A DNA stretch of 62,931 nucleotides, filler included, from Rhabdomonas costata (Eukaryota), in NCBI GenBank assembly GCA_019059605.1. It is 25 parts of 25 records of this genome, joined end to end, with 100 filler letters (N's around TTAATTAATTAA, not from the genome) between each part and the next. Parts side by side here need not be neighbours in the genome. Positions count along the whole stretch, not along the records: positions 60,512 to 62,931 come from JAHMHO010003509.1; 24 more parts are not named here. One strand, given 5' to 3'. Shown here piece by piece: positions 55,562 to 62,931 of the stretch. Position numbers and translations under genes: made by a program. Position 1 is the first letter of the stretch. Every line of letters begins with the position of its first letter. Below the pieces are notes generated by a model that saw only the letters and a list, made by a program, of their open reading frames with translations, made no database searches and was not told the origin of the DNA.

Positions 55562-56341
55562 CCAGGCACAACACAAAGACCTTCACTGAGGGAAAAAAGA
55601 GAGCACTCGGGAAAAGGGAACTGCTACAAAGAATGATGGGAAATGTCAGCTAGGTAAGAAGCACCGACACTGCCACAACAAGTCGCGACCGCTTTAGTCA
55701 AGAATAAAAACCACTTGCGGACGCACTGCCATCTTTACCTTGCCAAGTTGACTTGACTCCTCTTCGATACCTTTCTTACCCTTCAAAAGCAAAAGCAAAA
55801 ATAGTCCTTGGTTCTCTGCTGAGGAATAATCATCAAGCAAAGAGGCCTGTGCAGGTGATTCGTGCAATGGGATTCTTGAATTTTTTTTCTTGGGGGCGTT
55901 GAGCGTTTAGCTCCACAAAACGGTCATTTTCCTAAGCCCCTTAAATGACCCCCTTAAAACCCCTTAAAATATGAGGGAGCAGATAAACAGATAGCTACTC
56001 CCTTTAGCTTTAAAAAAAATATGCTTTTAGAGGCACAGTTTACCGAACCCCAGTGCCCTAAAAAAAACAAAAAAGTGTCCGATTCGGACATTTAGCCCAC
56101 CTGAAACGCAGTGCTAAACTGAGCATCGCCCACCCCATGGAACGTCCCAACCCATCCGCGCTGGCCTTCGCACCATAATAATCCCGTCCCATTTGTCTGC
56201 CAAAGCCCAGCAACGACAAATAAAAATCCGAACAAACACTGCTTTTGAACTTTATAAAGCCCCACACACAAAAAAAAATACAATGGTCCCCGTGCAAAAA
56301 CTCTCGAGCCCGCTGCGTATATGTGTGACCGTGCTCGCAAC

Positions 56342-56770
56342 CTTTCTCGTCTTGTTGTTCATCTGTTCGCATTTGCGGCACTGCCAATGGTTCTTAAAGT
56401 CCCCGACCAGCTCTCCATCGATGAATGGCGCGTCCCCAGGCTCGTCACCGAACATCCGGGCCTGCTTCATCCCACCAGGATTCGCTGCGCCGCAGCGATT
56501 GCAGTACGCCCGCCGCGCCCAGCAAACGTTCTTGCACTTCGGGCAGTCCCAGTCCCCAGGCTGCCGGAAGGGGGGCTTGGACACCCCTAGAGTCTGCATC
56601 TCTGACAGCTCGAGGTGCGCAAAACAATAGGGTGAAAAGCCAAACAGGGAGTGGGGGTGGGGGGTCAAAAAGCTGCAATACCAAATCCAAAAGCGTATTG
56701 GTGTGTCCAATAAATCAACTGAGGAAGCGAAAAGAACGGGCAACGAATTGGGATTGAAGAACTCCGCCAT
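56342..56770 (-). CDS. RanBP2-type zinc-finger protein; 5' part
   Basis: PGDWDCPKCKNVCWARRAYCNRCG is a complete RanBP2 finger. A second finger, WQCRKCEQMN..RK, is cut by a GT donor at 56341. Probable short first exon from ATG 56770. Confidence 0.85.
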
Positions 56771-57435: not shown

Positions 57436-57893
57436 TCAGTAAGTGAAGTAAATGATATACTCGGGAAGACACTGGGCCCCGTTATAAACAATCAACCCCC
57501 GATGGACCTGATGGCCCCCGTTGGCGACTCCTGGGTTGGCAACCACGCTGTCATACAGCACCGTTGGAACATCTTTGCGAGCAGGCGGCCTGCGCATGTT
57601 CGCCAATGTGGAATCCGTGTAGAAAATGTCCCCCAGAGTGACGCGGCAGTAGAGCAGGCAGAACCTCCCTTGCGCATCTTTGCTGCGACAGTACTGGGCG
57701 GACTTGCACCCCTCCTGAGCAAAGTAGATGCCTGCGCCAAAGAGGCCGCCCAGGTTGGCAACCCTTTCGTCAAAACCATTGCGTGCAATGATCGTTGCAG
57801 TATCAGGGCTGGACCCATGAAATAGATACACCTCGTTGAGATCCCTGTTCAAAACACGGTGATGCTCGACTCCAGGCTGAATGGAGAGGATCG
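57436..57893 (-). CDS. PARP catalytic domain (tankyrase/PARP12-like C-terminus); 5' partial
   Basis: [60 protein letters not shown]. Confidence 0.92.
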
Positions 57894-60511
57894 NNNNNNN
57901 NNNNNNNNNNNNNNNNNNNNNNNNNNNNNNNNNNNNNTTAATTAATTAANNNNNNNNNNNNNNNNNNNNNNNNNNNNNNNNNNNNNNNNNNNNTTCGAGA
58001 CGAGAAGCTTCAGCTGAATCTTGCTCTGGAACGCACGTCAGCTTCCACCACGGCAACCACGGAGCAGGTGGTGGCCATCAGGTGCGTCGGTCAGCATTGG
58101 GCACTGTTGCACGGGATGAAAATGTTGCTTGGGCTTGGGGAGCCTTGGGGATTTGGAACCCCGCTGGGCTGCATTCTGTATCTCATGGTGTCTCCTCTTT
58201 TTTCCCTCTTCCCCTGTGTGTTTTTTTCTGACTGCCTCAGCTTGTGTTGCGGTTCCATGAGGAGGACCTTTGACGCTGGACATTGCCTTGCCTGTGGTAA
58301 GCCTGGCCCAGTCAAGCTCATTTCTGGATTCCCGTTGGTCGAAGGCGCTTGTGTCTTCACAAACTGATTGACAGAGAGCTTGGGGGTTCAGCGTGCCTGT
58401 TGATGAGGAAATACAGAGGGTGCTTGCTTGTGCTTTGCGGGGTGAATACGGTAATCAGGCAAATGCTTTCTCGAAGAGACACGGAGCTGGAGGCGCAGCA
58501 GGAGAGGCTGGTGCACCTCCAGAATCTCCACAAAAGGTATGCATATTATAATGAAGAATGTGATCTGTGCAAATGCGTTGGGAATTGTAAGAGATGTCAT
58601 GCGCAGGTTCTGTTTCCTATTGTAGTCCTGCTGCGCTTTCGCCTTCGCCTTCGCTCTTGATTGGAAACTCGAAAACAACCGCCGCGTAGGAAAGCATTGC
58701 GCATCTCACATCGCTTCGATTTTCCATTTTTTTCTGGGGGCCCTGTGTGTGCGTGGGGGAGGGGGCCCATGAGCAAACGTACTCGCGCACACGGAACGGG
58801 GGGCGCTCGTGGGCCCGCCAGCGCTCTCGTAGACCCTCTGGGGTGAGCTCCATCGCGACTACCCCGCTGACTGCGTGACATCCAAAAGCCGTGGGAAGAA
58901 CGGTGAGTGCAACACGCGTCGACACCCAGCCAGCAAATCAAAGCAGCAGTAGTGGTGGTTAGCAGCAGAAACCCGTCGCCCCCACACACTTACCTCTGCA
59001 ACCGCCGCTACACTGCCTGTATTTTTCTCCAGCTCCTTCCTTGCAACAAATCTGTCCACAAATAAGCAAACGACTGCCCTGGGCCGTGTCTGCGCAGGCC
59101 GTGGGGCTGACTGAACATCACCGACCCAGGCACCGCATTGCCTATGGAGTCCACCACAGGGGTGCTCCCGAAGCGCCCCGCGGCCCATACCACCTCCCCA
59201 GAGTGCCGACGGATCTGAGCAAAAATTGTGTACCAGAGGCAGGGTATGATGGAGAAAGATAGGCGAATGTAAGTCATAAGAGGTAACGTAGAATACGTCG
59301 ATGTAGAATACGGGATGTTGTAATGGCATACCTTAGTTAACAGCGCTCACAGCTGGGATGGAGGCAAGATGAATGCAACAATGATTTGCAGTGAAAAAAA
59401 AGTAGAAACAAAAAGAGAGGGCCAGGATGCATTGAGAAGCGAAAAATCAAATCGGAAGGGTGCAAACAGAAAAGAAGCCAAATTGCAGGAAAGCAAGGGC
59501 GTTTCCAAAAAAAAAGGTGCAAAAGGGCAAGAAAGAAATGGAGATGGTAATGGCGGGGACAGATTACGGTAACATAAACAAGGAAAAGACACAGTGAAAT
59601 AAGGTGACAAGATGACAAGGAGGGACGGGATGTTGTGGATACGGTTGCGAGGTGGAGGATGACCTCCTGCATTCGTTACGTCGCTAGGGACACGTTAAAT
59701 TCGATTTTCCGGAAACATGCACAGGTTGTGCGAAATGGATGCAAGCGATGCGACCTATGGCAAAGACTTATTCGGAAAGCATACCTGAAACTTTTCGCTT
59801 TCACAGCAGTTGGCGGGGGAGGCTGACCTGAAACACGGTACTCAGTGTACGGGAGGTGATGTACAGCACTCCTTCCGAGGGCACCAGCTGGACGGTGTTG
59901 AAGTGAGTGAGATCCCTGCGTGGAAAAACGGAGTAACCAGAATTGGCGTAATGCCGTCCGCAGAAAGGGCATACAAAAAAGAGATGCTGACGTTTTAGGC
60001 AGAACTAGTGCACGTGTACCGCAAATGAATTGATTCACGCCCGCAGGAGCAAATGCACGGGAACATGGGAATCAGTGAGCGACTGTAATGCCATCCCTGG
60101 GCGGTTTCTGGAGGACCCAGGAAGACCATAGGGACCCCCCACGCAACGCGTTGCGGGGAATCTAATCTAAAGGAACTTCATGATACAGCTGGAGATGATG
60201 ATGATGTTGTAATATAAACCATTCCGGAAGCAAATGCACCACTTCCAGCACCCAAACACACAATAAGTGGCATATGACTGATAACTGATACGAGTGAGGG
60301 CGGTGAAAACACGAGTTCTTTTAATGCAACAACACGATCCTATGCAGTTCTTGACAAAATAAAGGCTTGTGTGAGGTCGGCCTGTGAGTATGAGAGAGTA
60401 AACACAACCTANNNNNNNNNNNNNNNNNNNNNNNNNNNNNNNNNNNNNNNNNNNNTTAATTAATTAANNNNNNNNNNNNNNNNNNNNNNNNNNNNNNNNN
60501 NNNNNNNNNNN

Positions 60512-60690
60512 GAATAAAAAGTTTTGTTGTATTTCTTATTGTATAGTATCAGATTAGGACCATATTTGGTATTGATTTGTTTTATTGCATTAATGTCAAA
60601 TGATTTACCCTCACTTTGTTCATTTAATTTAATCATACTTGAATTATCAAAAATTTCGTCAAAGTTCATATATAATAATATCTTATACAT
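60512..60690 (-). CDS. AT-rich hypothetical protein (virus-like), runs off contig
   Basis: ATG 6 nt after the stop of the preceding ORF; K/N/I/Y-rich; open to the contig end. Confidence 0.55.
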
Positions 60691-60696
60691 TATTTT

Positions 60697-61041
60697 TCAG
60701 CAAATAAATTCAACAATAATTCCAACAATATCCATGCATAAATAAGTTCTTAATATAGATCTATATGCATCACGTTTTAATATTATCTTATTCTTTTCGT
60801 GTCGTTTTATTAAAGCCTTTTGTGTTGATAGGTAATTTCTCCAAAGATGCATAATCTTATCGTGCACAAAAATAACATAAAACCTAAAATCTATGAATCT
60901 TTCATCATCTAAGACTTGAGTATACTGATCAGTATCCTCATCATATATTAATACTGAGAACAGATCAAATCGATCATCAAATAAAACCCTATGGAAATAA
61001 TCATATTTATTTTTAATCAGTAATGTATCATTTCTTACCAT
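60697..61041 (-). CDS. AT-rich 114-aa hypothetical protein (giant-virus-like) with C-terminal L.xDI.xxI.xF motif
   Basis: A 114-codon ORF in very AT-rich DNA is unlikely by chance. It is intronless and ends YLCMDIVGIIVEFIC*. Confidence 0.7.
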   Translation of the reverse strand: MVRNDTLLIKNKYDYFHRVLFDDRFDLFSVLIYDEDTDQYTQVLDDERFIDFRFYVIFVHDKIMHLWRNYLSTQKALIKRHEKNKIILKRDAYRSILRTYLCMDIVGIIVEFIC

Positions 61042-61782
61042 AAGAATATTTACTATTAGTATATACTATTAATTTTAGTTATGGTTGCATTTGACACCAC
61101 AAGAACAGAACTCAATAAAATTAATCCTCTTAGGCGGAGTTTCCACACCACGAGAGCCTTAATTAGGGGTCGTATCCGCCTCAGTGCGTTGCCCTTTGTT
61201 TATAGTGGGGGGCTCGCCTGTAGCCCTACACCCACTTGTGAGAATACAGCAAAAGTGAAGCGGTACAAAGGTCTGTGAAAGGGGACACACAAGGGAAGTG
61301 AGCTGGCACCTGTAAGAAAAAGGTTTTGAAGACATACAGCAAGCACAGCTGAAAAACAAGCGGAAATCCTATTTACTGCATTTACAAAAGAAGAGAACAG
61401 AAGAAAACACCAATCCTACTTATGAGATGTTTCAGCTCTCCCTTCCTCCAAGAAGAAGCTTTGAACTTTCTGATCCTTATTGTTTGTAAGCATGGTGACC
61501 GTTCCAACAACCCACCCCCGTTTCAGTAATTTAAAAACTCAACAAAAGTAGTATGTGAGCTCCACGAAGTGGAGGTATTTTATTTTTGTTTGTTGTTTGT
61601 GTTGTTTGTTGTTTGTATCTGTTTGTAACAAAATCTCAAACATCAGACAAGGAAACATATCTCTTCATCTTATTATCTTTATCCCTCCCGTTCAGAAAGC
61701 ATTTCGAAAGAGCGCTTCAAACGCCCTCTCTTTTATCTACGTCTCGTCATCTTCTTCGCTCCTTTCCTCCATTTCCCCTCCA

Positions 61783-62445
61783 TCAAACACTCTTGATGCA
61801 ACAAGCATAGAGAGAAGCTATTTTCTCTTGCTCTTTCTGGAGATGTACATCTTTTACATCCGTGAAGACATCTGACCCGATGCCATTATCTCTTTGAACT
61901 AGACGGTACAACCGCAGACTCCAGTACTTGCAGAGGACCCCGTCGGTTTCAAACCGATGAAACCGAGCTCCAATCTGTTTCTCCTCCCGCCTGAAGGATA
62001 CGTAGCTGCGCAAACCAGAACAATAAACCAAAGAGAGAATGAATAATACGTTAAACGAAAAAGCGCAGAACGCTCCAAACCAGTCTGAATCATAAGTAAG
62101 AACTTTTGGGGTGCGACTCTGGACACAGAGACGTAAGTCCATGCGGTTGGTTGCGCTAACTTCAACGTTGAGGTTGTTTATGAACGTCAGCAGGTAGTCC
62201 AGAACCTGTGAAATTAGAATTGCACGCACTGCACAGTTGGTTCAAATGGTTCAAATATAAAAAACCAATCTGAAAGGTAACACAAAAACCATTTCAGGGA
62301 GTGGCTCTCCTTGCTCAAAAAGCTTTTCGCGAGTAGCGGCAAGTTCACGCTGCTTGGAACCGTACTTCTCCTTGCGGTCGCGAGCTTTTTGACGACGCCT
62401 TTCCTCACGATCTTGGTCATCGGTCAGAACATCTTCATTTTCCAT
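61783..62445 (-). CDS. Hypothetical protein with two short introns
   Basis: Exons 62445-62290, 62205-62081 and 62005-61783; introns of 84 nt and (predicted) 75 nt, GT-AG. Charged coiled-coil-like N-terminus; no family recognised. Confidence 0.55.
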
Positions 62446-62527
62446 TTCTCTCTTTCGGGGAGAGAAATAAGAAAATATGGAGTCGTAGAAGAGGGAGAAC
62501 ATGGAAGCTGCAAATAAATAAACGTTG

Positions 62528-62835
62528 TGGGAACGCTCTTGGGACGCTGTAGGAACGCTGTAGGAACGCTGTTGGAACGCTCTTGGAACGCTGTTGGAAC
62601 GCTACTGGAACGCTGTAGGAACGCTGCTGGAACGCTCTGGGAACGCTGTAGGAACGCTGCTGGAACGCTATTGGAACGCTGTAGGAACGTTGTAGGAATG
62701 CTCTGGGAACGCTCTGGGAACGGTGTTGGAACGCTCTGAGAACGCTATGGGAACGCTGTAGGAACGCTACTGGAACGCTATGGGAACACTATAGGAACGC
62801 TGTAGGAACGCTGTAGGAACGCTACTGGAATGCCC
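62528..62835 (+). repeat. 11-bp minisatellite (YNGGAACGCTN) x28
   Basis: 308 bp = 28 ungapped units with near-invariant core GGAACGCT and three variable spacer positions. Confidence 0.98.
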
Positions 62836-62931
62836 ACTTTTAATTGGTTTTAATATTCTGCAGTTAATATATAGATTATGGATTCTGTAAAATTTCATCC
62901 AATTTATAAAAATTATGGATACAACACAGAA

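Follow-up and report, generated by a model that had tools for sequence, protein, structure and literature searches.

A Polinton-type virus family in the Rhabdomonas costata assembly and the host-like island that probably interrupts it

Introduction

What does an abrupt step in base composition mean when virus-type and eukaryote-type DNA meet inside one short contig? We address this question for a locus in the genome assembly of Rhabdomonas costata, which comprises 97 Mb split over 104,289 contigs. The window, that is, the whole stretch of DNA analysed (62,931 nucleotides), is made up of 25 unrelated contigs of ~2.42 kb each, joined by 24 identical artificial linkers of the form N44-TTAATTAATTAA-N44. 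One such linker (60412..60511, unstranded), which is not biology, precedes the contig under study, the last of the window (G000:C3509, window 60512-62931, 2.4 kb; hereafter C3509). Position 60512 is base 1 of C3509, a contig end and not a biological edge. A preliminary description had read the AT-rich start of this contig as the edge of an endogenous giant-virus or Polinton-like/virophage element, or as an amplification chimera with a co-occurring virus.

Endogenous viruses with a drop in GC are common across protists (PMC10120064), and a polymerase together with an rve integrase is the defining pair of Polintons (PMC5499653). Related literature also includes 10.1101/2023.08.22.554363 and 10.64898/2026.10.13.758929.

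Results

Base composition and upstream motifs

The AT-rich block at 60512-61080 has a GC content of 0.241 against 0.522 over 1-60412, bearing out the contrast with about 50% GC elsewhere that had been judged by eye, and within the whole window, 200-nt windows below 33% GC are found in this block only. The step formerly placed near 61080 is real, but it is described equally well by two change points, at 61082 and 61125, and the DNA to its right has a GC content of 0.44-0.455 instead of about 0.50. The block begins at a contig end, and a second step had been overlooked, at 62837, where C3509 returns to 0.22 GC.

The block contains two co-oriented ORFs 6 nt apart, as described before, both on the minus strand, with ORF1 at 60697-61041 and ORF2 starting at 60690. 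The AT-rich region upstream of ORF1 (61042..61081, minus strand) is likely its promoter, and it does contain the 12-bp palindrome (61057-61068) and AAAATTAA (minus strand, 61069-61076) to which attention had been drawn, but such motifs are close to what chance would yield. Dinucleotide shuffling of the block (1000 replicates) produced one or more 12-bp palindromes in 39% of cases and AAAATTRA in 43%; when the 40-nt segment preceding ORF1 was shuffled, the values were 11.5% and 2.2%, respectively. The block holds three palindromes, a number reached in 1.4% of 1000 dinucleotide shuffles. The early promoter motif of Mimiviridae, AAAATTGA, is absent in its exact form from the block; across 24 upstream regions of family genes, it is found in none and AAAATTAA in one. 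AAAATT as a family-wide promoter motif occurs in 6/24 regions, not clearly above the 18% of shuffled controls, and TATA lies within the last 15 nt upstream in 15/24 against 31% in controls, a weak signal from genes that are not independent.

ORF1 and ORF2

ORF1 (60697..61041, minus strand) encodes a small helical protein of 114 aa. At E<=0.001 it has 19 relatives among 1.84 billion representatives; none of these 19 clusters is named, nor is P0067 (the relative of the island gene described below), and the members of the clusters lie on short contigs. Additionally, four paralogues are found in the assembly, all on AT-rich contigs. The AlphaFold model (pLDDT 92.9) consists of a helix, a β-hairpin, a 53-residue helix and a short C-terminal helix, and the hydrophobic tail is conserved across the family. 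ORF1 matched nothing in Pfam or PHROGs, reached at best 0.87, with low recognition, in the ESM Atlas, and found no similar fold at E<=0.001 in a viral structure library and the PDB (Foldseek); neither ORF1 nor its alignment has a match in IMG/VR. The tail had been likened to that of F-box proteins. This identity is rejected, with 0/21 members of the ORF1 family matching F-box families at E<=1 and no fold match at E<=0.001, and a weak functional likeness through the conserved tail may nevertheless exist. ORF1 is a genuine gene, and its family has no name. The most plausible role of ORF1, which we propose tentatively, would be that of a protein-binding adaptor acting through the long helix and the conserved C-terminal helix.

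The first 59 codons of ORF2 occupy 60512..60690 (minus strand); the ORF starts at 60690, runs off the contig and continues in C82933. The tail of ORF2 is similar to the gene next to the ORF1 paralogue in C585, which it follows there, and searches of Pfam and PHROG with ORF2 gave no match.

Genes linked to the block

The genes and their order are observed directly along overlapping contigs. To the right, the AT-rich DNA contains the start of an HNH endonuclease gene (62878..62931, plus strand; HNH_3, E 4e-15), which is whole in C46704. From this start, 11 contigs extend rightwards with end overlaps of 71-204 nt at 98-100%, the chain running from C3509 through C103497/C46704 (HNH), C99238, C62446, C79326, C22760, C82767, C103112, C65210 and C93869 to C10922. 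Beyond HNH follow a small basic ORF, a polymerase and an rve integrase. The chain spans the whole polymerase, with 28 of 32 matches at 52-91% identity to P0087; the polymerase relatives carry PF03175 and PF02945 (protein-primed polymerase, endonuclease VII), cnidarian genome proteins being among the family, and a piece of the polymerase itself scores E 1.5e-4 with PF03175, under the cut-off. The integrase begins directly after the polymerase in C10922 and matches an IMG/VR ORF of the rve group at E 2e-31, the Pfam rve model giving only E 0.002 on the fragment. Altogether 18 rve integrase matches are found in the assembly. At least three distinct integrase lineages (L108-L119) occur, which means that the assembly contains several Polinton families.

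To the left, C3509, C82933, C6732, C85170 and C2164 are chained by overlaps of 69-127 nt. ORF2 is followed by a small Cys-rich ORF3, after which the genes lie on the opposite strand, in the order papain protease (PF00112), small proteins, short P-loop ORF, protease, Arg-rich ORF and capsid-like ORF. One of the small proteins has a relative in IMG/VR locus L064. The P-loop ORF (~134 aa) has a weak match to Pox_A32 (E 0.021), and searching the assembly with the Pox_A32 family gave 0 matches. The protease ORF of C2164 has relatives in 4/22 IMG/VR loci (best E 1e-7) and no match among solved structures, and a paralogue of it weakly matches Peptidase_C5 (E 0.048). The capsid-like ORF of C2164 scores E 6e-6, in a single comparison, with a profile of seven IMG/VR ORFs that were themselves taken as capsids on account of their length and location; no signal came from two further profiles, and the single-sequence structure prediction of the ORF has a pLDDT of 30.7. 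The capsid, ATPase and protease assignments of this arm are putative and weak. Small ORFs beside the P-loop gene (L095 in C14626, L102 in C50151 and L103 in C39617) have an ORF1-like hydrophobic tail, yet the ORF1 profile does not detect them; several accessory proteins may have this tail in common as a module.

The ORF1-2-3-papain module is repeated in C585, with an ORF1 DNA identity of ~68%, and the family is mosaic, C99377 being a C6732-type start joined to a C585-type end. Four of the chain overlaps are only 69-78 nt long. Because the chains cross a mosaic multi-copy family, they give the gene order of the family and not that of one molecule; we infer that both arms and the island described below share a molecule. 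The sister module in C585 also contains a 289-aa ORF fragment (L005, G000:C585, 1820-2686) with no Pfam or PHROG match, which we take to recall the MSV199-like proteins of large DNA viruses.

A Polinton-type virus

Both the protein-primed polymerase and the rve integrase of Polintons are present, linked to the block at the family level, and this supports the Polinton-like option of the preliminary description. ORF1 and ORF2 belong, as accessory genes, to a small integrating virus of the Polinton/Maverick type and not to a giant virus. Further hallmarks of Polintons are a double jelly-roll major capsid protein, a minor capsid (penton) protein, an adenain-like maturation protease, an A32-like packaging ATPase, terminal inverted repeats, target-site duplications and a unit of 15-20 kb. 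Mavirus, too, has a polymerase plus rve; virophages of its kind have a virophage-type capsid and rely on a giant virus. Following the established roles of these Polinton genes, the protein-primed polymerase would start at the ends of the linear genome to copy it, the rve integrase would insert the element into host chromosomes, and the putative capsid, protease and ATPase genes could package the genome.

The argument that the two arms are natural neighbours draws on one metagenome contig and one contig of the assembly itself. In the former (L032), a relative of ORF1 is separated by 107 bp from a small ORF, divergently oriented, and a polymerase-like long ORF. This long ORF shows 26-36% identity with the first half in 9/9 polymerase-family proteins (full-length or partial). 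In the latter (C31817), an ORF1 paralogue and an HNH gene without its start diverge. The other two of the three metagenome loci, L033 and L034, were discarded as chance matches inside a bacterial ATPase gene, L032 alone scoring with the family profile. Among the IMG/VR loci with the same polymerase type, 0/22 carry the ORF1 family, ORF2 or the papain gene. No useful locus emerged when IMG/VR was queried with ORF1, alignment A2, two C585 proteins, the polymerase fragment or HNH; the match L031 is weak and unrelated.

Integrated copies and a candidate terminal repeat

One stretch of the family gives 27 matches at 71-100% in 25 contigs, and decay is seen directly in several copies. Specifically, the capsid-gene relic of C4505 (L149, locus ~1060-1845) has a 69-nt insertion and flanks of 57% and 49% GC, C29459 contains a capsid gene with frame breaks, C4597 and C16466 contain integrase pieces with stops inside DNA of 43-50% GC, and a polymerase piece with a stop in C70496 runs into host-like DNA. 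The HNH copies of C44828 and C46704 differ by 7 missense, 1 nonsense and 2 silent codon differences, the C44828 copy being joined to a repeat present in many host contigs, whereas two polymerase copies show 10 silent and 7 missense differences in 179 codons. The integrated copies found are relics; an intact one was not seen. Any single decayed copy could be an amplification error or chimera, but taken together they indicate that a host genome contains copies of varying age. The C4505 capsid relic also adjoins an apparent host exon.

The top-scoring 18S gene of the assembly is strongly expanded (1842 nt across model positions 4-1116) and lies on a contig of 62% GC; we take it to be of the euglenid type. 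A second 18S gene of ordinary length (L018, G000:C25815, 1-1157), presumably green-alga-like, means that the sample contains more than one eukaryote. The Polinton family is endogenous, in many diverged copies, in the euglenid-like host genome. On an unrelated host contig of the window, we also observed a PARP catalytic domain (PF00644, E 1.5e-19) at 57436-57852 (minus strand) together with RanBP2-type zinc fingers (PF00641, E 3e-5) at 56252-56770 (minus strand).

Past the integrase lies one inward-pointing ORF and then a stretch of 46% GC with small hairpins (L164, G000:C67797, 1-673; also L151, L160, L163 and L165-L168), which is 97.5-100% identical after three different AT-rich interiors. 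It includes a piece 70-85% identical to a retrotransposon of eight other contigs (49-58% GC) that encodes a gag-type aspartyl protease. The stretch is a candidate terminal repeat, which would consist in part of captured host DNA, and the retrotransposon piece suggests that the family acquires and keeps host DNA. Of the 14 IMG/VR loci matching rve, five have the polymerase and rve directed towards a contig end less than 1 kb away.

A host-like island, probably between the two arms

The DNA to the right of the first step forms a host-like island of 44% GC (61082..62520, unstranded; left border 61082-61125), which occurs as a single copy in searches of the assembly. When a Markov model is built from the window's remaining 24 contigs, the island (61126-62520) scores -1.97 and these contigs themselves -1.97, and TpA is 0.58 in the island and 0.53 in the 24 contigs against 0.90 in virus DNA, a depletion common to island and host. 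Its GC content of 0.44 lies below that of all 24 contigs (0.47-0.59). The earlier view that virus-type DNA is joined here to eukaryote-type DNA is right. The island carries a predicted spliced gene (61783..62445, minus strand; exons 62445-62290, 62205-62081 and 62005-61783) with two predicted GT-AG, T-rich introns of 84 and 75 nt. Exon 3 has a relative, P0067, that is 53% identical over 68 residues, the match starting at the predicted acceptor; the gene would be spliced. P0067, encoded on an unrelated metagenome contig of 1082 bp, is the sole relative found for the gene.

The island is followed by a tandem array of 27.5 copies of an 11-bp unit (62521..62823, unstranded), found only beside the HNH gene. 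Its pattern occurs in five contigs only, all tied to the C3509 locus, and in none of the control; four of them show the HNH side and one the array alone, and the array-HNH junction is present in three contigs besides C3509. The island and its left junction, by comparison, are known from one contig, with no second DNA or protein match in the assembly. At the island borders we found neither an inverted repeat nor a target-site duplication, the fold of the border is not unusual (z -0.46), and Rfam returned nothing on C3509. A tyrosine-recombinase or a retroelement nature of the island was rejected, as Pfam gave no match and the Atlas was blank, and the suggestive recombinase motif falls in predicted intron 2. 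Likewise, the island has no blastn or tblastx likeness to the 46% GC terminal-like stretch and was rejected as a part of it.

What is the step, then? To read it as an element edge is probably mistaken, since after another 1.76 kb C3509 returns to virus-type DNA belonging to the same family. Since the flanks are natural neighbours in L032 (less cleanly in C31817) and the likely end lies past the integrase, we regard the step at ~61080 as most likely the left border of an internal host-like island within a Polinton-type virus and not an element end. The island and the 11-bp array would lie in the divergent promoter region, with the ORF1-2-3 arm on one side and the arm of HNH, small ORF, polymerase and integrase on the other, and the island would derive from a eukaryote genome via capture or insertion. 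Its arrival by insertion or recombination into one integrated copy is plausible, and we hold it with somewhat less than even confidence. The island may instead be cargo carried by the element lineage, which we consider rather doubtful. As cargo, its low GC would reflect drift during carriage (compare the retrotransposon piece, 46% against 49-58% in its relatives), and the sole relative of its gene, on a metagenome contig, would mark the transfer route. The full form of this idea, a euglenid Polinton lineage with a captured intron-bearing eukaryotic cargo gene in its central promoter region, appears unlikely, if conceivable.

Alternative explanations of the step

The join at ~61080, and perhaps that at 62520, could come from whole-genome amplification, the Polinton genes themselves being real. 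We judge such a chimera rather unlikely, although several observations speak for it: the island and left junction are represented by a single contig, neighbouring contigs show fold-back artefacts of amplification in virus-type DNA (L002, C94488; the end of C6732, L049, 1818-1983), the ends of many contigs consist of G/T-only or C/A-only runs such as primer-based amplification leaves, and two other virus-to-host joins fall inside genes. However, a chance join would need to meet the natural neighbour exactly at its promoter end and in its natural orientation, no contig offers an alternative continuation upstream of ORF1, G/T-only runs of at least 11 nt occur at neither step (the nearest lie 400-500 nt inside the island), and the array-HNH junction recurs as described above.

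A separate question, weighed independently of the island, chimera and element-end readings, is whether the element stems from a different organism of the sample or represents a free virus, so that the island would be DNA of that other host. The green-alga-like 18S gene of C25815, the GC content of the island below that of every other contig in the window, and the lack of a paralogue of the island gene in the assembly are consistent with this. Decayed copies of the element nevertheless sit in DNA that scores as host, and the terminal-like stretch of the family is 70-85% identical to the retrotransposon of the 49-58% GC contigs, which makes a foreign element distinctly unlikely.

It is also very improbable that both steps are true element ends, with the island as host DNA separating one integrated copy at its right end from another at its left end. 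ORF1 and HNH are both directed away from the island, as is often the case for the end genes of linear elements, and the island has a host-like composition; yet no inverted repeat pairs its two borders, the candidate terminal repeat is a different sequence past the integrase, the array has neither a second inverted neighbour nor a set of differing host flanks, and in L032 the two arms are only 107 bp apart.

Finally, a Mimiviridae-like giant-virus piece, free or endogenous, is hardly credible: the assembly search for capsid and ATPase genes that had been suggested did find giant-virus-type capsid genes (five PF04451 matches over the cut-off in four contigs of 23-40% GC), and papain proteases and HNH genes are known also from giant viruses, but the PF04451 contigs are on neither chain, the polymerase linked to the ORF1/ORF2 family is protein-primed and followed by an integrase, AAAATTGA precedes 0/24 family genes, 0/21 ORF1-family members fit the F-box, and ORF1 is without a match at E<=0.001 in predicted viral structures and, singly or as an alignment, in IMG/VR; the former Mimiviridae reading of the ORFs is not supported.

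Discussion

Endogenous Polintons are common in protists, and the class itself is ordinary. What C3509 contributes is an anchor for the gene order of a family, from capsid-like gene to integrase, in a euglenid-like genome. As described for Polintons/Mavericks (Polintoviricetes; PMC5499653, 10.64898/2026.06.19.733378), the protein-primed polymerase is directly followed by the rve integrase, putative protease, ATPase-like and capsid-like genes are present, GC is below that of the host, and integrated copies are many. Unlike those elements, the present family has a euglenid-like host, an additional papain protease and an unnamed ORF1-2-3 module, its P-loop ORF is only ~134 aa long, and its capsid is without group placement. 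The 22 IMG/VR loci (e.g. L054, L064 and L066) are alike in their polymerase, 30-45% identical to P0086, in rve and, putatively, in A32 ATPase and protease; L064 further has a small protein in common with the left arm, and the metagenome contig L032 shares ORF1 and its position, whereas ORF1, ORF2 and the papain gene are present in 0/22 of these loci.

GC-richer inserts in related elements are known in two forms, and the island, by its features, appears to resemble the cargo of nematode Mavericks. In the nematode cargo regions (10.1101/2022.07.12.499685), a GC-richer, intron-bearing gene lies among intronless virus genes, as predicted for the island; they are reported there as 2-5 kb long, located between terminal repeat and integrase, and moving between species, whereas the island measures 1.4 kb, is placed upstream of the polymerase arm, was seen once and has a gene without known family. 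The nested retroelements of cryptophyte Polinton-like viruses (PMC12220804) are alike in being GC-richer inserts in intergenic space of an endogenous virus, but are described as 4-9.5 kb long, with reverse transcriptase and often direct repeats, none of which the island shows. Were the island carried as cargo, the transfer of spliced host genes by Mavericks would extend from nematodes to protists.

Our literature search found no report of such a family for a euglenid-like genome and, for euglenids, only the giant-virus elements of Euglena gracilis; the string 'euglen' has 0 occurrences in the main texts of PMC10120064 and 10.64898/2026.06.19.733378, whose supplements may list euglenids. The giant endogenous viral elements of E. 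gracilis (10.1101/2025.04.23.650285) are similar in that low-GC (25-35%) integrated virus DNA erodes in a euglenid genome; they are assigned there to Nucleocytoviricota, whereas the block studied here is tied to replication and integration genes of the Polinton type. Occurring together in one sample, a Polinton family and a giant virus could form a virus-on-virus pair, and no link between them was found here. The giant-virus-type capsid genes of this assembly lie in C53914 (L012), C6785 (L014, two in tandem), C6302 (L015, with many stops) and C52698 (L016).
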